Source: Enterobacteria phage mEp460. Taken from it: 44,510 nucleotides of DNA. The translations under genes were made by a program, and so were the position numbers. The DNA is taken from the sequence record NC_019716.1; one strand, 5' to 3'. The first letter of the stretch is position 1, and every line of letters starts with the position of its first letter. A model generated the notes under the pieces. It did not search any database. It was given only the letters and a program-made list of their open reading frames with translations, and was not told the origin of the DNA. Below are positions 34,470 to 43,256 of this stretch, one piece after another.

Positions 34470-35284
34470 GTATGGAGCTGATGGTTAAAGCGATGAAAAT
34501 TCGAGTGGGTAATCCATTGCGAAAACTGGTTCTGATCAAGCTGGCTGATAATGCCAGCGATCAGGGTGAGTGCTGGCCCAGCTACCAGCATATTGCTGAC
34601 CAGTGCGAGATTAGCAAACGTTCTGTGATGAATCATATTGCGGCCCTTTGTGAGTCCGGGCTGGTAAAAAAAGTCACCCGGAAAGGTGAAAAAGGTAACT
34701 CAAGTAATATCTATCTCCTTCATCTGGATGGTGCAGGAGATTCACTAGGGGGTAGTGCAAATAATTCACTATCTGGTGCAGCAAATTCACCAGGTAGTGC
34801 AGGAGTTGCACCAGGGGGTAGTGCAGGAGATTCACCCAGAACCAGTCACTCTTTTGAACCAGTCAAAGAACCAGTCAATGAACCAATAGCTGTTGGTGCA
34901 TCAGTTGATGAGTCCGTGCGAGTTCGTTCAAACCGACCGGAATACTCTCCGGAGTTTGAGCAGGCATGGCTGGCATATCCCAAACGTGCTGGTGGCAATT
35001 CAAAATCTGCAGCCTTCAAAGCCTGGAAAGCCCGTTTGAACGAGGGGGTAAACCCCGAAACCATGCTGGAAGGTGTGAAACGCTACGCGGGCTGGGTATC
35101 TGCGATGGGCAATAGCGGCACACAATTTGTGAAACAGGCTGTCACGTTCTTTGGTCCAGATCGTCATTTCGAAGAATCCTGGGAAGTTCCTGCGGTATCT
35201 GCAGCCAGACGCGAGGACCCGTACTTCAAAGCCAGTTACGACAACGTGGACTACAGCCAGATCCCGGCAGGATTCAGGGGGTGA
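34466..35284 (+). CDS. Replication initiation protein, putative (N-terminal winged helix, O-like)
   Basis: 272 aa; N-terminal HTH (SYQHIADQCEISKRSVMNHIAAL), low-complexity linker encoded by DNA repeats, conserved C-terminal region. Confidence 0.55.
   Translation: MSMELMVKAMKIRVGNPLRKLVLIKLADNASDQGECWPSYQHIADQCEISKRSVMNHIAALCESGLVKKVTRKGEKGNSSNIYLLHLDGAGDSLGGSANNSLSGAANSPGSAGVAPGGSAGDSPRTSHSFEPVKEPVNEPIAVGASVDESVRVRSNRPEYSPEFEQAWLAYPKRAGGNSKSAAFKAWKARLNEGVNPETMLEGVKRYAGWVSAMGNSGTQFVKQAVTFFGPDRHFEESWEVPAVSAARREDPYFKASYDNVDYSQIPAGFRG
34728..34890. repeat. Iteron-like direct repeats inside the replication gene (candidate ori)
   Basis: GGTGCAGGAGATTCAC twice, GGGGGTAGTGCA twice, ACCAGTCA three times. 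Confidence 0.4.
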
Positions 35285-35775
35285 TCATGAGTCTTTTGAA
35301 TGAAGTTCAGAAATTCATTGAAGCCCATCCGGGGTGTACTTCCGGAGACATTGCGGATGCTTTTGCAGGTTACTCACGGCAGCGCGTTCTGCAGTCAGCA
35401 AGCAAGTTACGTCAGAGTGGGCGTGTGGCTCACCGTTGTGAAGGAGATACACGCAGACATTTCCCACGCCTGACTGAGAGAGCGCAGGAGCCGGAACCAC
35501 AACCAGTTCGTGAAACCAGACCTGTGCGCAATTTCTATGTCGGCACTAACGATCCCCGGGTGATTTTGTGCCTGACCCGCCAGGCGGAAGAACTGGAGTC
35601 CAGGGGCTTATACCGTCGTGCTGCAACGGTGTGGATGGCGGCATTCCGTGAAAGCCACTCCCAGCCAGAACGAAACAATTTTCTGGCGCGTCGTGAGCAG
35701 TTTTTACGGAAAAGCAGCAAGCGCGCTGTATCGGGTGATGAGTGGTATCTGTCAGGGAATTACGTGGGGGCTTAA
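35281..35775 (+). CDS. PerC/ANR-like putative transcriptional regulator
   Basis: 164 aa; C-terminal EELESRGLYRRAATVWMAAF...ERNNFLARR pattern; overlapping starts and stops. Confidence 0.4.
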   Translation: MIMSLLNEVQKFIEAHPGCTSGDIADAFAGYSRQRVLQSASKLRQSGRVAHRCEGDTRRHFPRLTERAQEPEPQPVRETRPVRNFYVGTNDPRVILCLTRQAEELESRGLYRRAATVWMAAFRESHSQPERNNFLARREQFLRKSSKRAVSGDEWYLSGNYVGA

Positions 35776-36428
35776 TGAGTAATAAATATTGCCAGGAGCT
35801 GGTGGAACTGCGGAACAAACCAGCCCATGAACTGAAGGAAGTGGGTGATCAGTGGCGCACGCCGGACAACATTTTCTGGGGAATTAACACCCTGTTTGGC
35901 CCGTTTGTTCTGGATCTGTTCACTGACGGTGATAACGCCAAATGTGCCGCGTATTACACGGCGGAAGACAACGCGCTGGCGCATGACTGGTCAGAACGCC
36001 TTGTGGAGCTTAAAGGTGCTGCCTTTGGTAATCCTCCATACAGCCGCGCCAGTCAGCATGAGGGGCAATACATCACCGGCATGCGTTACATCATGAAACA
36101 TGCCAGTGCCATGCGTGATAAGGGCGGGCGCTATGTTTTCCTGATCAAAGCTGCCACCAGCGAAGTGTGGTGGCCGGAAGATGCAGATCATATTGCTTTT
36201 ATTCGCGGGCGTATTGGTTTTGAACTGCCTGTCTGGTTTATCCCGAAAGACGAGAAGCAGGTACCGACAGGAGCTTTTTTCGCTGGTGCTATTGCTGTTT
36301 TTGACAAGACCTGGAAGGGACCGGCAATCAGCTACATCGGGCGCGATGAACTTGAGGCATGTGGTGAGGCGTTTCTGGCGCAGGTTCGCCAGCAGGCGGA
36401 AAAACTGGTCAGGGAGATGGTGGCATGA
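35775..36428 (+). CDS. Phage Dam-like DNA N6-adenine methyltransferase (orphan)
   Basis: GNPPYS catalytic motif; start at ATG 35775 (MSNKY) overlapping upstream stop; no adjacent restriction gene. Confidence 0.75.
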   Translation: MSNKYCQELVELRNKPAHELKEVGDQWRTPDNIFWGINTLFGPFVLDLFTDGDNAKCAAYYTAEDNALAHDWSERLVELKGAAFGNPPYSRASQHEGQYITGMRYIMKHASAMRDKGGRYVFLIKAATSEVWWPEDADHIAFIRGRIGFELPVWFIPKDEKQVPTGAFFAGAIAVFDKTWKGPAISYIGRDELEACGEAFLAQVRQQAEKLVREMVA

Positions 36429-36751
36429 CGACGTTAACTCAATGCCAGCAGCAGGTGCTGGATATGCTGATTTCTTATCAGAAAGAACGTGGCTTCCCGC
36501 CAACCAATCAGGAGGTGGCAACCATGCTGGGATACCGTTCAGTGAATGCAGCGGTGGAGCATCTTCGCGCACTGGAGAAAAAAGGCGTCATCACGATAAA
36601 GCGTGGCGTGGCCCGGGGGATAACGCTTCATACCGCGGTGAAGGACGACGACAGCGAGGCGGTCGGGATTATCCGCTCACTGCTTGCCGGTGAGGAAAAC
36701 GCAAGGCTGCGTGCAACCCACTGGTTACATGAGAGGGGCCTGAAAGCATGA
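36425..36751 (+). CDS. LexA N-terminal DNA-binding-domain homolog lacking the S24 peptidase domain
   Basis: 108 aa; LT.CQQQVLDMLISYQKERGFPPTNQEVATMLGYRSVNAAVEHLRALEKKGVITIKRGVARGITL parallels the LexA winged-HTH; short helical tail. Confidence 0.6.
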   Translation: MTTLTQCQQQVLDMLISYQKERGFPPTNQEVATMLGYRSVNAAVEHLRALEKKGVITIKRGVARGITLHTAVKDDDSEAVGIIRSLLAGEENARLRATHWLHERGLKA

Positions 36752-37137
36752 AGCTGATCCTGCCTTTTCCGCCCAGCGTGAACACGTACTGGCGACACCC
36801 CAACAAAGGGGCGTTTGCTGGTAAGAGCCTGATAAGCGCGGCGGGGCGCAAATTCCAGAGCGCGGCGTGTGCAGCAATAGTTGAGCAGTTACGTCGTCTG
36901 CCGAAACCAACGTCGGCACCTGCTTCAGTGGAGATCGTGTTGTTTCCTCCGGATAACCGGATCCGCGATCTGGACAACTATAACAAGGCGCTGTTTGACG
37001 CCCTGACCCACGCGGGTGTGTGGGAAGACGACAGTCAGGTGAAAAGAATGCTGGTGGAGTGGGGACCGGTTATCCCGAAAGGGAAGGTCGAGATCACTAT
37101 CAGTAAGTACGAGAAAACGGCGGGTGCAGCCGCCTGA
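36748..37137 (+). CDS. rusA: RusA Holliday-junction resolvase
   Basis: 129 aa; PPSVNTYWRH and RDLDNYNKALFDALT...WEDDSQV motifs. Confidence 0.8.
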   Translation: MKLILPFPPSVNTYWRHPNKGAFAGKSLISAAGRKFQSAACAAIVEQLRRLPKPTSAPASVEIVLFPPDNRIRDLDNYNKALFDALTHAGVWEDDSQVKRMLVEWGPVIPKGKVEITISKYEKTAGAAA

Positions 37138-37156
37138 TCAAGAGGAGAAACGAAGT

Positions 37157-37966
37157 ATGAATAATCTGATGGTCATTGATGGTATTGAAGTTCGTCGTGA
37201 TGCTTATGGGCGTTACAGCCTGAACGATCTGCATCGCGCAGCAGTAGCATCTGGTGCAAATGCCAGAACCAAGGAGCCGGGAAAGTTTCTTTCCAGCCAA
37301 CAAACTGTTGAGCTTGTTCATGAATTGACCAACACCCAGAATTTGGGTGTTGACCCGGTGAGTGTGATTCATGGGGGAAATGAACGGGGAACGTATGTCT
37401 GCAAGGAACTGGTGTATGCCTATGCAATGTGGATCAGCCCGTCATTCCATCTGAAGGTGATCCGTACTTTCGATATGGTAACCAGCGCACCGGAAAAATT
37501 ATCCGGACAGGCTGCTGACAAGATGCAGGCTGGCGTGATCCTGCTGGACTTTATGCGCCGGGAGTTAAACCTGTCTAACTCTTCAGTGCTTGGTGCCTGT
37601 CAGAAACTCCAGGAGGCTGTTGGCTTACCGAATCTGGCACCGCGCTATGCCATTGATGCTCCTGCTGATGCACACGATGGCTCAAGTCGCCCGACACTGT
37701 CACTGAGTGCACTGCTGAAACAGTATGGTATACGCCTGACAGCTAATCAGGCATATCACCAGATGGTGAAACTGGGGATCGTCGAGCAGCGCGAACGATA
37801 CAGCCGTACCGCGATTAACAACATCAAAAAATTCTGGTCGCTGACAGCGAAAGGTTGCATGTTCGGCAAGAACATCACCAGTCCCGCAAATCCGCGCGAG
37901 ACGCAGCCGCATTTCTTCGAATCCCGATTCCCTGAGCTGTTAAAGCTGCTCGATACCGTTCATTGA
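37157..37966 (+). CDS. KilA-N domain protein (antirepressor-like)
   Basis: N-terminal KilA-N pattern (IDGIEVRRDAYGRYSLNDLHRAA...GTYVCKELVYAYAMWISPSFHLKVIRTFD); start at ATG 37157. Confidence 0.6.
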   Translation: MNNLMVIDGIEVRRDAYGRYSLNDLHRAAVASGANARTKEPGKFLSSQQTVELVHELTNTQNLGVDPVSVIHGGNERGTYVCKELVYAYAMWISPSFHLKVIRTFDMVTSAPEKLSGQAADKMQAGVILLDFMRRELNLSNSSVLGACQKLQEAVGLPNLAPRYAIDAPADAHDGSSRPTLSLSALLKQYGIRLTANQAYHQMVKLGIVEQRERYSRTAINNIKKFWSLTAKGCMFGKNITSPANPRETQPHFFESRFPELLKLLDTVH

Positions 37967-37967
37967 G

Positions 37968-38963
37968 GTGACCGTGAGAGCACTACTGACCCCTGAAATT
38001 GCCCCGCGTATGGGGATCGTATTGTTCAGGCCAGGTTCAGAGCTGATGCCCCTGTTTATGCAGGGGCGTGTCCTGCTGGAGCCTGAGCCGGAGCGTTATT
38101 CATCTTTCGCCAGTGGTGCCGTTCCGGCGGCATCACAACCGCTGGCGGATGATCCTGCCGTTCGGGCCGTGTTCCGCAATGAGGCAGTGATCCGTCGTGC
38201 TGGTGGCGTGGAATGTCTTGAAAGCTGGTTACTTCGTGAAAAAGGCTGCCAGTGGCCTCATTCCGACTGGCACAGCGAGAACATGACCACAATGCGACAC
38301 GCTCCGGGTGCAATCCGTCTGTGCTGGCACTGCGATAACCAGCTGCGCGATCAGTTCACGGAACGGCTGGAATCAATGGCAACGGATAACTGTGCCCGCT
38401 GGGTGTTGTCTGTTGTGCGTCGGGATCTCGGTTTTGATGACAGTCACGTTGTGACAATGCCTGAACTGTGCTGGTGGCTGATTCGTAATGATCTGGCGGA
38501 TGCCTTACCGGAAAGTGCAGCCCGTAAGGCACTGAGATTACCGAAGCCTGTTGTGCCGTCTGTTACCCGGGAAAGTGACCTTGTGCCTTCGGTTCCTGCC
38601 ACCAGCATCATCCAGGATAAGGCGAAAAAGGTGCTGGCGCTGAAAGTGGATCCGGAGTCGCCGGAGTCTTTTATGTTACGCCCAAAACGTCGCCGCTGGG
38701 TTAATGAAAAGTACACGCGCTGGGTTAAGACACAGCCGTGTGCATGTTGTGGAAAGCCCGCTGATGATCCCCACCACCTGATAGGTCACGGTCAGGGTGG
38801 AATGGGAACAAAAGCGCATGACCTTTTTGTGTTGCCTTTGTGCAGAAAGCATCACGACGAGCTGCATGCGGATACCGTGGCATTTGAAGAGAAGTATGGC
38901 TCCCAGCTGGAGCTGATATTTCGTTTTATCGATCGTGCGCTGGCAATTGGCGTATTGGCGTAA
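37968..38963 (+). CDS. DUF968-type protein with C-terminal HNH/Zn-finger-like motif
   Basis: 331 aa (GTG start in track); C-terminal CACCGKPADDPHHL.GHG.GGMGTKAHD...PLCRKHHDELH cluster. Confidence 0.5.
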   Translation: MTVRALLTPEIAPRMGIVLFRPGSELMPLFMQGRVLLEPEPERYSSFASGAVPAASQPLADDPAVRAVFRNEAVIRRAGGVECLESWLLREKGCQWPHSDWHSENMTTMRHAPGAIRLCWHCDNQLRDQFTERLESMATDNCARWVLSVVRRDLGFDDSHVVTMPELCWWLIRNDLADALPESAARKALRLPKPVVPSVTRESDLVPSVPATSIIQDKAKKVLALKVDPESPESFMLRPKRRRWVNEKYTRWVKTQPCACCGKPADDPHHLIGHGQGGMGTKAHDLFVLPLCRKHHDELHADTVAFEEKYGSQLELIFRFIDRALAIGVLA

Positions 38964-38976
38964 GTGGAGAACGAGC

Positions 38977-39729
38977 ATGAACCTTGAAGCCTTACCAAAA
39001 TATTACTCCCCAAAATCTCCAAAATTGAGCGATGACGCACCGGCGACAGGCTCAGGTGGTTTAACGATTACGGATGTGATGGCTGCGCAGGGGATGGTGC
39101 AGTCGAAAGCACCGCTTGGGTTTGCCTTATTCCTGGCAAAAGTTGGTGTTCAGGATCCTCAATTTGCGATTGAAGGTCTGCTCAATTACGCGATGGCACT
39201 GGATAACCCGACATTGAACAAATTGAGTGAAGAAACCCGGTTACAGATCATCCCTTACCTTGTGAATTTTGCCTTTGCTGATTATTCCAGGTCTGCGGCA
39301 AGTAAGGCTCGCTGTGAGCATTGTGCTGGTACTGGATTTCATAATGTATTGCGCGAAGTGGTGAAACACTCCAGAAGCGGGGAATCTGTTATCAAGGAAG
39401 AGTGGGTGAAGGAACTATGTCAGCATTGTCATGGTAAGGGAGAAGTCAGCACAGCGTGCAGAGGGTGTAAGGGTAAAGGTATTGTCCTGGATGAAAAAAG
39501 GACCCGGCTTCATGGCACGCCTGTTTATAAGATTTGTGGGCGTTGCAATGGAAACCGGTTTAGCCGTTTACCAACCACACTGGCGCGGCATCATGTCCAG
39601 AAGCTGGTACCAGACCTGACGGATTATCAGTGGTACAAAGGATATGCAGATGTCATTGATAAACTGGTTACAAAGTGCTGGCAGGAAGAAGCATATGCAG
39701 AGATACAATTGAGAAAGGTGACAAGATAA
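38977..39729 (+). CDS. Late antitermination protein Q
   Basis: About 250 aa with Cys-rich Zn-binding segment (CEHCAGTG...CQHCHGKGE...CRGCKGKG...CGRCNG); followed by promoter and terminator. Confidence 0.75.
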   Translation: MNLEALPKYYSPKSPKLSDDAPATGSGGLTITDVMAAQGMVQSKAPLGFALFLAKVGVQDPQFAIEGLLNYAMALDNPTLNKLSEETRLQIIPYLVNFAFADYSRSAASKARCEHCAGTGFHNVLREVVKHSRSGESVIKEEWVKELCQHCHGKGEVSTACRGCKGKGIVLDEKRTRLHGTPVYKICGRCNGNRFSRLPTTLARHHVQKLVPDLTDYQWYKGYADVIDKLVTKCWQEEAYAEIQLRKVTR

Positions 39730-39760
39730 ATGGTTTTCGCCGAAGATGACGACATGATGC

Positions 39761-39789
39761 TTGCATTTTTCAAAAAATATGGATAAGAT
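39761..39789 (+). promoter_or_regulatory. Putative late promoter pR' (TTGCAT-17-TAAGAT)
   Basis: Sigma70-like hexamers with 17-bp spacer, 30 bp after Q stop and about 50 nt before a terminator. Confidence 0.45.
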
Positions 39790-39835
39790 TTTCCCAACGA
39801 TGGGCTTTGTATGTCTACCGTTGATAAGATTTAAG

Positions 39836-39860
39836 AACCCGCCCCTGAGCGGGTTTTTTT
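39836..39860 (+). terminator. tR'-like intrinsic terminator
   Basis: AACCCGCCCC-TGAG-CGGGTTTTTTT. Confidence 0.65.
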
Positions 39861-40009
39861 GTGCCTGATGTCTCATGAAACTATGAAATGGATTGGTGCG
39901 TTAAACATTTTTTCTTATTATCTTTTAGATTTTGGAGAGATGGTTAACGTCTGTATTCCAGAAACTCGATGATTATTTAATAAATTAGTTTCAATGATGC
40001 TTCTAGGTT

Positions 40010-40435
40010 ATGACTGTAATGAAAAAGGTATTAATAGCAGCGATAGGTTTTTGTTTAGTTGGTTGTGCAGGTATGAAATTACCTGAGTATTCGCAAGTTA
40101 AAGCAAGTCCGTATTATACAGATTGCCGTGCGTTTGCCATGGATGTTTATAAAAATGATGGATACAGCAAAATTGCGAAAACTACTATCCTTAGCATGGA
40201 TGATGTGAAGGCTAGATATATTGTGACAGGGTGTGTAGTTGCTATGGGGAAAAACACTGTAGAGGAAATCAAAGCTGATCTCTCTGCTAAAGGGAGTTCT
40301 TTTGGGCTTATCAGTGGAGCTTGTTCTAGTGCGGCATGTCGGGTTGATGTAGAGCAGCAAATGAACGCTTATGTACTTGGTAGTTATTATGCTGCAAATA
40401 AAAAATTCCCGGATAAAATGAAAGCAGAGTTTTAA
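40010..40435 (+). CDS. Lipoprotein moron (signal peptide plus LVGC lipobox), function unknown
   Basis: 141 aa; N-terminal hydrophobic stretch ending in LVGC; six further Cys; AT-rich codons; between tR' and a second terminator. Confidence 0.6.
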   Translation: MTVMKKVLIAAIGFCLVGCAGMKLPEYSQVKASPYYTDCRAFAMDVYKNDGYSKIAKTTILSMDDVKARYIVTGCVVAMGKNTVEEIKADLSAKGSSFGLISGACSSAACRVDVEQQMNAYVLGSYYAANKKFPDKMKAEF

Positions 40436-40512
40436 GTAAACCTTGTTTTCGATTATATGTCGAAGATAAATGTTAGTAACGGCATAATAAGTAAATATAT
40501 AGCTGTAATAGC

Positions 40513-40537
40513 AACCCGCCACTGAGCGGGTTTTTTG
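40513..40537 (+). terminator. Intrinsic terminator, near-identical copy of tR'
   Basis: AACCCGCCACTGAGCGGGTTTTTTGTACCTG versus AACCCGCCCCTGAGCGGGTTTTTTTGTGCCTG at 39836. Confidence 0.65.
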
Positions 40538-40634
40538 TACCTGTAAACTTGGTGCAGTACAGTAAACACGCTGGTGGTCGTGAATACTGACTTTTTATCT
40601 TGCTGGCTTTTTAGACAAGAGTTATTGGTATGTC

Positions 40635-40862
40635 ATGTTAACCAGAAGGGAAAAAGACATGCTAAAACAGCAAGATATGACAGAAACCGCCGCCGCAGTC
40701 CTTCATTTCTTACCTGCTGACAAGTGGGTAACGCCACGCATGATGACGAGAACTACCGGAGTAAGCGAAGCCCGGTGCCAGTTAATACTGACTCAGTTAG
40801 TTCTGGCGGGTCTGGCGAAGGATAACGGCGGGTACGGGAATAAATTCAGACGCTGCCAGTAA
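40635..40862 (+). CDS. Small hypothetical protein, possibly winged-helix
   Basis: 75-aa ORF (possible start ATG 40659) upstream of the methyltransferase gene. Confidence 0.35.
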   Translation: MLTRREKDMLKQQDMTETAAAVLHFLPADKWVTPRMMTRTTGVSEARCQLILTQLVLAGLAKDNGGYGNKFRRCQ

Positions 40863-41012
40863 TGGCGGTTTCCTGCTGTGAAAATGGGCGGCTGGTGGGT
40901 GTTGGTAGCACCTGCCAGCCATTCGCTCATGCTTACTGGTCACAAGCGAACCACGGCCCACTGCTTTAGCGCAAAAGCAGAGTGAGCCTACCAGAGTTAC
41001 GCTTACTGATCC

Positions 41013-42065
41013 ATGAAAAATACTGTAAAAATAAACAGTGCTGATTTAATCAACGCTGATTGCCTGCATTTTATTCAGTCCCTGCCTGATGATTCCATTG
41101 ACCTGATTGTTACCGATCCGCCGTACTTCAAGGTGAAACCCAACGGCTGGGACAATCAGTGGAAAGGGGACGAAGATTACCTTAAGTGGCTGGACCACTG
41201 TCTGGCCCAGTTCTGGCGGGTGTTAAAACCTGCCGGAAGCCTTTACCTGTTCTGTGGGCATCGCCTGGCATCTGATATTGAGATCATGATGCGTGAACGT
41301 TTCAACGTGCTTAACCATATCATCTGGGCGAAGCCGTCCGGACGTTGGAATGGGTGTAATAAAGAAAGTCTGCGCGCATATTTTCCTGCCACAGAGCGCG
41401 TTCTGTTTGCTGAACATTACCAGGGGCCATATCGTGGCAAAAGTGACGGCTATGCGGCAAAAGAAAGGGAACTCAAACAGCACATAATGGCACCGCTGAT
41501 ATCGTATTTCAGGGATGCTCGTGCCGAACTGGGTATAACGGCAAAACAAATTGCCGAAGCCACAGGTAAGAAAAATATGGTTTCCCACTGGTTTGGTGCC
41601 AGTCAGTGGCAGTTGCCGAATGAGGCTGACTATCGGAAGTTACAGGCACTGTTTTCCCGTATAGCGGCAGAGAAGTTTCAGGAACAACAACTGGAACAAC
41701 CACACCACCAGCTGGTGGCATCTTATGATTCACTGAATCGCAAATATTCTGAATTGCTGGATGAGTTTAAATCTCTCCGGCGCTATTTCTCCGTATCAGT
41801 CTCCGTGCCTTATACCGATGTCTGGATGCATAAACCCGTTCAGTTCTACCCGGGTAAACATCCGTGTGAGAAACCGGCGGATATGCTCAGGCAAATAATC
41901 AATGCCAGTAGTCGACCCGGTGATCTGGTTGCTGATTTTTTTATGGGATCCGGTTCCACAATAAAAGCAGCAATGGCGCTGGGGCGTCGGGCCTTAGGTG
42001 TTGAGCTTGAGTCAGAGCGGTTTAACCAGACAGTGAAAGAGATAAACGAGCTGGTGGGGAAATAA
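41013..42065 (+). CDS. Beta-class DNA methyltransferase (N6-adenine or N4-cytosine), orphan
   Basis: DPPY catalytic motif N-terminal (LIVTDPPYF), AdoMet motif C-terminal (DFFMGSGST); no partner restriction gene. Confidence 0.85.
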
Positions 42066-42132
42066 TCTGGTGGCCACGTCAGGTGGCCTTTTTATTTCCA
42101 TTACACAGCACCCGCATCTGCGAGGTGGGGTT

Positions 42133-42348
42133 ATGAAATCCATGGATAAGTTAACAACGGGTGTCGCCTATGGCACCTCAGCAGGTAGTGCCGGGTACTG
42201 GTTTTTACAGTTGCTCGATAAAGTCACGCCCTCACAGTGGGCGGCAATAGGTGTGCTGGGTAGTCTGGTATTTGGCCTGCTGACGTACCTGACAAACCTT
42301 TATTTCAAGATTAAAGAAGACAAGCGTAAGGCTGCACGGGGAGAGTAA
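42133..42348 (+). CDS. Class II holin, phage 21 S-like pinholin with dual-start motif
   Basis: [26 protein letters not shown]... with two TMDs and charged C-terminus; GAGGTGG SD; M1/M4 dual start. Confidence 0.75.
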
Positions 42349-42352
42349 TTCA

Positions 42353-42667
42353 ATGACTCAAAACTATGAACTGATTGTGAAAGGGATCCGCAATTTTGAG
42401 AATAAAGTTACGGTAACTTTAGCGTTACGGGACAAAAACCGCTTTGACGGTGAAATTTTTGACCTGGACATCTCGCTGGACCGTGTTGAAGGTGCCGCGC
42501 TGGAGTTTTATGAGGCAGCAGCCAGAAGGAGCATCAGACAGGTCTTCCTGGATGTTGCTGCCGGGTTATGTGAAGGGGACGAGCTGTTGCCAGAAACGCG
42601 CCCCTGTTCAGAGGCGCGGTATACCATAAAAATTAACAGTTCTGATAACTCGATTACGGGTTGTTAG
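42353..42667 (+). CDS. Hypothetical protein inserted between holin and endolysin
   Basis: 104-aa ORF, no TM segments, acidic; function unknown. Confidence 0.45.
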   Translation: MTQNYELIVKGIRNFENKVTVTLALRDKNRFDGEIFDLDISLDRVEGAALEFYEAAARRSIRQVFLDVAAGLCEGDELLPETRPCSEARYTIKINSSDNSITGC

Positions 42668-42722
42668 CTTTTTGCAGTTGGCTTTCCAGTATCTTTCATT
42701 GGTAGCATCCTGATAAATATCC

Positions 42723-43256
42723 ATGAGCGCAAAAATCAAATACGGCCTGTCAGCTGCTGTTCTGGCGCTGATTGCTGCAGGCGCGTCTGCTCCTCAAATC
42801 CTTGACCAGTTTCTTGATGAAAAAGAGGGTAACCACACTACGGCATACCGCGATGGTTCCGGTATATGGACCATCTGTCGTGGTGCCACAATGGTGGATG
42901 GTAAGCCCGTCATACCGGGAATGAAGCTGTCGAAGGAAAAATGCGACCAGGTTAACGCTATTGAACGTGATAAGGCGCTGGCATGGGTGGAGCGCAATAT
43001 TAAAGTACCACTGACCGAACCACAGAAAGCGGGTATAGCGTCATTTTGTCCCTATAACATTGGCCCCGGTAAGTGTTTCCCGTCGACGTTTTATAAGCGG
43101 CTGAATGCCGGTGATCGTAAGGGTGCATGTGAGGCGATTCGCTGGTGGATAAAAGATGGTGGGCGCGATTGCCGCATACGTTCAAATAACTGCTATGGAC
43201 AGGTTATTCGTCGTGACCAGGAAAGCGCATTAGCCTGTTGGGGGATAGATGAGTGA
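42723..43256 (+). CDS. SAR endolysin (T4-lysozyme-like muramidase with N-terminal signal-anchor-release domain)
   Basis: N-terminal weakly hydrophobic Ala/Gly-rich segment, then E-8aa-D-5aa-T catalytic triad ([18 protein letters not shown]). Confidence 0.85.

Follow-up and report, generated by a model that had tools for sequence, protein, structure and literature searches.

Enterobacteria phage mEp460 (record NC_019716.1; 44,510 nucleotides, referred to here in full as the window) carries genes for two adenine DNA methyltransferases, which we call MT1 and MT2, and neither gene has a restriction endonuclease as a neighbour. In our view, these are probably two independent, partnerless modules: MT2 would be a late, non-specific adenine methylase with an anti-restriction role, and MT1 an early and likely site-specific enzyme. 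Judged by sequence identity, both are already known, being 98 to 100% identical to annotated genes in many phages and E. coli genomes; as near-identical copies of annotated prophage genes, they add nothing new to biology. The useful outcome is a correction. A first-pass annotation of the window had proposed self-methylation against restriction or epigenetic control, and the former is the best-supported role for MT2, but it had missed that MT2 is a member of the M.EcoGII family of non-sequence-specific adenine methylases, and this changes which experiments are sensible. The only element that may be new is a structured RNA leader located directly upstream of the MT2 gene.

The two methyltransferases and their relatives

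The reading of MT2 as a beta-class methyltransferase, with DPPY ahead of FFMGSGST, was borne out. The protein matches PF01555 (E 2.2e-42; 145.9 bits against a threshold of 26.7), and its motifs, TDPPYF at residues 34-39 and DFFMGSGST at residues 308-316, stand in the beta-class order and align with the corresponding blocks of M.EcoGII and of the solved beta-class enzymes M.RsrI, M.MboIIA, and CcrM. The first-pass annotation had named disrupted catalytic motifs as one observation that would refute its reading, and on alignment the catalytic and S-adenosylmethionine (SAM) motifs of both MT1 and MT2 are intact. MT2 is 81% identical and 90% similar to M.EcoGII and is collinear with it over all 349-350 residues (the M.EcoGII sequence was read from the PDF of Supplementary Table S1 of PMC11551740, and a few of its residues may be wrong). 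It also carries Q179, as does the M.EcoGII clade, and is 89% identical to Anc291, a reconstructed ancestor. Anc291 has been purified and found to be active as a non-site-specific DNA and RNA adenine methylase, other reconstructed ancestors are also non-site-specific, and the nearest site-specific relative, M.PflMI, is about 27% identical to M.EcoGII (PMC11551740). These comparisons place MT2 in the M.EcoGII family and suggest, by homology, that it is non-specific as well. Because members of this family methylate adenine without sequence specificity, the motif-based target prediction recommended in the first-pass annotation is moot for MT2.

M.EcoGII was described as a non-specific adenine methyltransferase encoded by a prophage of E. 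coli O104:H4 and not expressed in the lysogen; it modifies up to 99% of dA in vitro, thus blocking many restriction enzymes, is deleterious when expressed constitutively, and belongs to "a very large family" found across E. coli strains and including phage 1720a-02 (PMC5778455). This phage is also named in PMC11551740 as the bearer of a very similar methyltransferase. The preprint that presents 1720a-02 as a "bully phage" makes no mention of methylation. M.EcoGII and M.EcoGI of E. coli O104:H4 C227-11 resemble MT2 in their layout (DPPY, central domain, FxGxG), in Q179, in their prophage location, and in the absence of an endonuclease (PMC5778455). Nevertheless, 19% of the residues differ between M.EcoGII and MT2, and activity, non-specificity, and silence in the lysogen are measured properties of M.EcoGII but predicted ones of MT2. 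Elsewhere, MT2 is 98-99.7% identical to genes of SfV, cdtI, and mEp460, more distant phage copies are found in N15, PY54, and phiKO2 (56-61% identity), and relatives with 62-85% identity occur across Enterobacterales; one cluster at 90% identity contains 4060 member sequences. A functional analogue is provided by Hin1523, Nma1821, and Hia5 of Mu-like prophages, which are partnerless, promiscuous prophage adenine methylases thought to be broadly anti-restriction (PMC3299994). These enzymes are alpha-class, with a motif order opposite to that of MT2 (PMC5778455), and their architecture is not homologous.

MT1 had been read as a Dam-like N6-adenine methyltransferase, and this assignment stands: its open reading frame (ORF) and NPPY motif are intact, and the protein matches PF05869 "Dam" (E 1.2e-45; 155.7 bits against a threshold of 28.1; profile positions 3-167 of 169) and the NCBIfam equivalog TIGR01712 phage_N6A_met (256.4 bits against a cut-off of 97.05). 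MT1 is 99% identical to the product of SfV dam, and phage T1 Dam is another member of this phage Dam family (PF05869/TIGR01712). The single characterised relative that we compared is orf32 of VT2-Sakai, the sole annotated DNA methyltransferase within the first 30 kb of that phage, which we take to be M.EcoVT2Dam, listed as a GATC enzyme in PMC6602927. Both proteins belong to PF05869 and are encoded in the early-right/nin region of a lambdoid phage; the FGNPPYS of MT1 lines up with the NNPPYS of the VT2-Sakai enzyme, and an upstream acidic block at the SAM site also aligns. However, they share only 31% identity, over 143 residues, and the C-terminus of MT1 is 42 residues longer. A sequence search of the PDB with MT1 gave no match even at E<=1. 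Palindrome and GATC statistics were also uninformative for target prediction, as palindromes are avoided in general and GATC occurs 163 times in the window against 172 expected from base composition. Thus, given the 31% identity to a GATC enzyme, the lack of a sequence-related solved structure, and the unremarkable GATC frequency, the target of MT1 is unproven.

The start codon of MT1 overlaps the stop codon of a PerC-like gene (TAATG), and its own stop codon overlaps the start of a gene for a protein with a LexA DNA-binding domain (LexA-DBD; ATGA), an arrangement that points to translational coupling with its neighbours in the early-right operon. The Dam-family gene behaves as a clean presence/absence indel: it is absent from Ayreon, where the PerC-like gene abuts the LexA-DBD gene. 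MT1 is therefore accessory and independent of MT2. As a separate observation, the SfV RefSeq record NC_003444.1 and some other phage records call the Dam-family gene "phosphoadenosine phosphosulfate (PAPS) reductase". MT1 matches only the C-terminal part of phrog_33262 (profile positions 283-492 of 495), and the label likely arises because this PHROG was built from PAPS-reductase-Dam fusion proteins; it is probably a propagated annotation error.

The description of both enzymes as solitary also holds, as no family of restriction endonucleases was hit when the flanking and accessory ORFs were scanned with Pfam, PHROG, and PADLOC. The neighbouring genes encode PerC-like, LexA-DBD, RusA, KilA-N, DUF968, Q, lipoprotein, winged-helix, and holin proteins, so that neither locus has the make-up of a Type II restriction-modification (R-M) system. 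The only nuclease-like products among them are RusA and the DUF968 protein, the latter with a marginal HNH-like match at its C-terminus (PF16784; 26.9 bits against a cut-off of 26.6). Both are present in Ayreon, which lacks the Dam gene, so the DUF968 protein is not a dependent partner of MT1. It is common at the same position in lambdoid prophages. The idea that the methyltransferases are decaying, non-functional R-M remnants is highly implausible, for although the closest PADLOC models are labelled Type II methyltransferase, neither ORF is truncated, the catalytic and SAM motifs are preserved in each, very many phages and genomes carry copies of both at 98-100% identity (including the 4060-member cluster), both genes occupy fixed places in phage operons with no endonuclease remnant adjacent, and the one truly truncated copy that we found, in the locus L038, looks different.

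The structured leader and the predicted winged-helix gene upstream of MT2

The spacer of 150 nucleotides before MT2 is strongly conserved across genera and has a minimum free energy z-score of -3.0 relative to shuffled sequence. Its proposed structure consists of the helices P1 (40885-89/40956-60), P2 (40890-901/40909-920), P3 (40922-27/40945-50), and P4 (40961-67/40974-80). A covariance model built from this hand-drawn structure was searched against 80 species-level loci picked by the methylase, from Escherichia, Citrobacter, Klebsiella, Pantoea, Providencia, Xenorhabdus, Photorhabdus, and other genera. It found one copy per matching locus in 58 of them, always on the plus strand and ending at the methyltransferase start wherever upstream DNA was available. 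In the model-fitted alignment, 22 pairs show two-sided changes (18 if P5, a further helix discussed below, is left out and a candidate pseudoknot is included), compared with 9-12 in shuffled alignments and 3-9 in controls with slid pairing, and 86% of cells are paired (82% shuffled; 28-47% slid). In an alignment made with MAFFT and not fitted to the model, there are 9 such pairs compared with 5.2 in shuffled and 1-4 in slid controls. Most of the covariation is found in P2, in which 11 of the 12 pairs are compensated: the arms are GGCTGGTGGGTG and CACCTGCCAGCC in the window, GACTGTAAAGGTG and CACCCTTACAGTC in Providencia, and GATCGGAGAGCG and CACTCTTCCGATC in Lonsdalea. Frequent G-U pairs on the plus strand indicate that the structure is an RNA in the mRNA sense. 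MT2 has no visible Shine-Dalgarno sequence, and the loop of P3 could form a pseudoknot with the nucleotides just 5' of the ATG (GGUCA at 40938-42 with UGAUC at 41007-11), a pairing available in 95% of sequences.

Rfam 15 gave no match at E<=1 over 40860-41024, and the other matches obtained in 39600-42400 lie elsewhere and are below threshold. Some alternative readings of the leader were rejected. The helix P5 (GTGAGC/GCTTAC) of the single-sequence fold is unsupported across homologues, with 31% of cells paired, and TGTGRAAAT before P1 was considered as an extended -10 promoter, but many homologues have GGAAAT or GGAATG instead, which lack the key A2 position. A mini-ORF (ATG-GGC-GGC-TGG-TGG-GTG-TTG, encoding MGGWWVL and a stop) at 40884-40907 recurs in several related loci, with its tandem Trp codons derived from a Chi site; in the window, it runs on to 34 codons, and translations of the leaders show longer frames too. 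A coding explanation of the leader is judged unlikely, given that the frame shifts between loci through indels of one nucleotide in the P3 loop; the Providencia leaders lose the mini-ORF peptide but retain the hairpin, and no Shine-Dalgarno sequence precedes the mini-ORF. The Chi copy in question, at 40891-40898, is also the 5' arm of P2. Chi as the cause of conservation would fit this arm but would not account for compensation in taxa that lack Chi.

The Chi sequence, GCTGGTGG, occurs 20 times in the whole window, where about 1.6 copies would be expected; other copies are found, for example, at 40570-40577 and 42050-42057. Most are in the right half, and 16 of the 20 are on the plus strand, an orientation expected to act on RecBCD that enters from the right, lysis-side end. 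Among ten early-left ORFs scanned with Pfam, no Red/Gam-type genes were found.

Upstream of the leader lies the small ORF that the first-pass annotation had given as 75 codons at 40635-40862 and proposed as a possible controller of the second methyltransferase. The ORF is real at its maximal length, but the protein likely begins at the ATG at 40659, which would give 67 residues: this start is backed by a Shine-Dalgarno sequence (AAGGGA) 7 nucleotides upstream, RefSeq annotates 40659-40862 in a homologous prophage, and the homologues begin with MLKQQDMT. AlphaFold2, run with an alignment of 25 homologues, predicted a winged helix (three helices followed by two beta-strands) with a pLDDT of 88, whereas prediction from the single sequence was poor (pLDDT 57). 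Foldseek returned generic winged helices, including Z-alpha (TM 0.84), TrmBL2, IclR, and PefI, and the Pfam matches to TrmB, DprA_WH, and MarR are all below threshold; distant homologues are named "TrmB family transcriptional regulator" in some sources. The small ORF is thus predicted, from modelled structure, to encode a winged-helix protein that binds DNA or RNA.

Its linkage to the methyltransferase is tight. It lies 82-157 nucleotides upstream of the gene in 53 of the 77 species-level loci with enough upstream sequence, and in 80 IMG/VR loci picked by the small protein, an M.EcoGII-type gene follows with unchanged spacing in every locus that extends far enough. The sole apparent exception is L038, where the region 1747-2184 contains the small winged-helix gene followed by a methyltransferase cut off after about 110 residues. 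In the other direction, the small ORF is absent from around 30% of homologous methyltransferase loci, and in L100 and L148 the methyltransferase comes directly after Q. The leader model takes in loci lacking the small ORF, and the leader is the more constant upstream element of the methyltransferase. The small ORF and the methyltransferase gene also recombine independently, given that in SfV a small ORF with 51% identity stands beside a methyltransferase with 98% identity.

Controller (C) proteins of R-M systems are Xre-type helix-turn-helix proteins of about 80 amino acids, which bind palindromic C-boxes upstream of their own gene and delay expression of the endonuclease. The small ORF shares with them that a small nucleic-acid-binding protein is encoded just 5' of a modification gene. 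An analogous controller timing MT2 expression could be argued for from the confidently predicted winged helix, from the fixed distance to the methyltransferase in loci from Escherichia to Xenorhabdus, and from the methyltransferase gene or truncated remnant that follows wherever the small ORF is found. Even so, we regard this as unlikely. The fold is not of the Xre type, with no match to Pfam HTH_3/Xre, an endonuclease is absent, and a search for C-boxes or operators around the small ORF found only short repeats at chance level and no convincing palindrome. Moreover, the methyltransferase and its leader do without the small ORF in the loci mentioned above, and the divergent SfV variant accompanies a nearly unchanged enzyme. 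Thus, the term controller is acceptable only loosely, for a predicted nucleic-acid-binding protein tightly linked to the methyltransferase, and a C-protein proper was rejected.

Publications on M.EcoGII (PMC5778455, PMC7544214, PMC11551740) mention neither the leader nor the small gene, both of which are present at MT2. Our best guess, held with low to moderate confidence, is that the leader limits translation of a toxic enzyme. More specifically, we tentatively propose that the leader RNA of about 130 nucleotides, comprising the P1-P3 junction, P4, and possibly the pseudoknot, and often joined by the winged-helix protein, may be an undescribed module that gates translation of a toxic methylase in M.EcoGII-family loci of prophages across Enterobacterales. 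Such a module might possibly sense a ligand (SAM or S-adenosylhomocysteine), the enzyme itself, or the winged-helix protein. If regulation of MT2 by the leader and the winged-helix protein is true, it would explain how prophages hold M.EcoGII-type genes silent yet deployable, and would add a new class of cis-regulatory RNA in phage late operons. The founding member of the M.EcoGII family is sold commercially as an enzyme, and knowledge of such regulation might help the expression of tools of this type.

Timing of expression and possible roles

In lambdoid late operons, transcription from the late promoter gets past the first terminator only after RNA polymerase has been modified by Q. The order Q, terminator, small ORF, methyltransferase, terminator, holin is common to SfV, Ayreon, and E. 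coli SC516, the SfV and Ayreon depositors annotated terminators equivalent to those after Q and after MT2, and the gene order around the methyltransferase persists beside different Q genes and lysis cassettes in the IMG/VR loci. Given this position between Q and holin, behind terminators, we infer that MT2 is not produced in the lysogen and appears only during the late stage of lytic growth. Consistent with this, homologous orphan methyltransferases of prophages were reported to be transcriptionally silent in ST131 lysogens (PMC4659465) and in O111 Shiga toxin-producing E. coli (PMC6602927).

We favour the following sequence of events as the probable one. MT2 would remain silent in the lysogen and be made only once Q lets RNA polymerase pass the terminators. 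Phage DNA, both replicating and packaged, would then be covered with N6-methyladenine (m6A) at the stage when concatemers are being packaged, and the progeny would withstand many restriction systems of Types I, II, and III on entering the next host. Given that M.EcoGII is harmful when constitutive, the output of MT2 is probably further limited by the leader RNA and perhaps by the winged-helix protein. MT1, encoded in the early-right operon, would be expressed with replication, translationally coupled to its neighbours, and would most likely add site-specific m6A to fast-replicating phage DNA, with GATC as the best guess for its target.

Several points weigh against this picture. Methylation and expression by this phage are predicted from its genes, and the role of M.EcoGII homologues inside a phage is likewise putative in the literature on the enzyme (PMC5778455, PMC7544214, PMC11551740). 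The late promoter is not pinpointed: the best candidate by eye is TTGCAT-17-TAAGAT at 39761-39789, which agrees with the consensus at 7 of 12 positions, and a promoter scan did not call it. The candidate pseudoknot of the leader shows one-sided changes only, with no two-sided covariation. Dense m6A could also expose the DNA to methylation-dependent (Type IV) nucleases. For MT1, the distance from the VT2-Sakai enzyme makes the target a guess, GATC is neither avoided nor enriched in the window, and a GATC enzyme would be partly redundant, since the host already has Dam.

This redundancy bears on another possibility, namely, that the main task of one or both enzymes is to regulate gene expression in phage or host (lysis-lysogeny, lysogen stability, packaging, or replication timing), since a second GATC enzyme protects little in a host that already methylates these sites. 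Dam methylation does regulate prophage genes, as in the phase variation of P22 gtr (PMC8022706), and MT1 is placed among regulators, with a PerC-like activator upstream and the LexA-DBD protein downstream. Nevertheless, we consider epigenetic control improbable as the main function: a non-specific enzyme is unable to encode site-specific information, MT1 is dispensable, being missing from the otherwise near-identical Ayreon, and homologues of both enzymes are reported to be silent in lysogens.

Alternatively, late and massive methylation of host DNA and RNA might disable mismatch repair, SeqA/oriC control, or mRNA function, or blind other defences, with protection of the virion DNA being secondary. 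M.EcoGII methylates double- and single-stranded DNA, DNA:RNA hybrids, and RNA, and is harmful to cells (PMC5778455, PMC7544214), and MT2 lies directly 5' of the lysis cassette. However, the same position implies expression just ahead of lysis, leaving little time for manipulation of the host to pay, and the activity of M.EcoGII on RNA is around 100-fold below that on DNA (Table S3 of PMC11551740). Host takeover or counter-defence of this kind thus appears quite improbable, and late self-methylation against restriction is the role that we prefer for MT2.

Gene order and neighbouring features

The window corresponds to a lambdoid E. coli phage or prophage of the SfV/Ayreon/1720a-02 type. Over the region 35000-43000, its identity to Stx2c-converting phages, phage Ayreon, PhiR phages, and Shigella phage SfV is 96-99%, and 241 complete E. 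coli genomes match this region over at least 80% of its length; the right arm of the window is 96.5% identical to phage 1720a-02. The coordinates of MT1 and MT2 (Table 1) coincide with RefSeq gene calls in an E. coli prophage with 98.8% identity. SfV (GenBank U82619) has the same gene order from the replication gene to holin, and its dam, orf47, and orf48 correspond to MT1, the small ORF, and MT2, respectively.

Table 1. Positions of the genes and signals discussed, in window coordinates
Feature	Position	Strand	Basis or remark
YmfL-like and Rha-like genes, then replication initiator	from 32.5 kb	+	start of the gene order
PerC-like gene	35281-35775	+	directly before MT1
MT1, phage Dam-family N6-adenine DNA methyltransferase, 217 aa, NPPY	35775-36428	+	PF05869, TIGR01712
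LexA-DBD protein, 108 aa	36425-36751	+	PF01726, E 2.9e-19
RusA, KilA-N, and DUF968 genes	between the LexA-DBD gene and Q; DUF968 at 37968-38963	+	
Q antiterminator gene, start of the late operon	38977-39729	+	PF03589, E 1.3e-53; RefSeq ydfT
Intrinsic terminator, tR'-like, about 100 nt 3' of Q	39836-39866	+	sequence reading, direct repeat
Lipoprotein moron, low GC	40010-40435	+	PHROG 4748
Second terminator copy, 96% identical to the first	40513-40543	+	direct repeat
Predicted small winged-helix protein gene, 67 aa (maximal ORF from 40635)	40659-40862	+	PHROG 331, AlphaFold2
Structured leader of MT2	40885-41012	+	covariance model, covariation
MT2, beta-class adenine methyltransferase assigned to the M.EcoGII family, 350 aa, DPPY then FxGxG	41013-42065	+	PF01555
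Intrinsic terminator between MT2 and the holin gene	42065-42096	+	depositor annotations of the SfV/Ayreon equivalents
Holin gene, then endolysin and spanin	42133-42348 (holin)	+	lysis cassette

The LexA-DBD protein consists solely of the DNA-binding domain, aligning with lexA positions 1-91 of 203, and lacks the autocleavage domain. It could act as a non-cleavable LexA mimic at SOS boxes. The two copies of the terminator repeat (39836-39859 and 40513-40536; 96% identical) bracket the lipoprotein gene (GC around 43-44%). This gene is absent from SfV, which also lacks the duplicated terminator, and from many related loci, and it looks like a moron inserted at the terminator.

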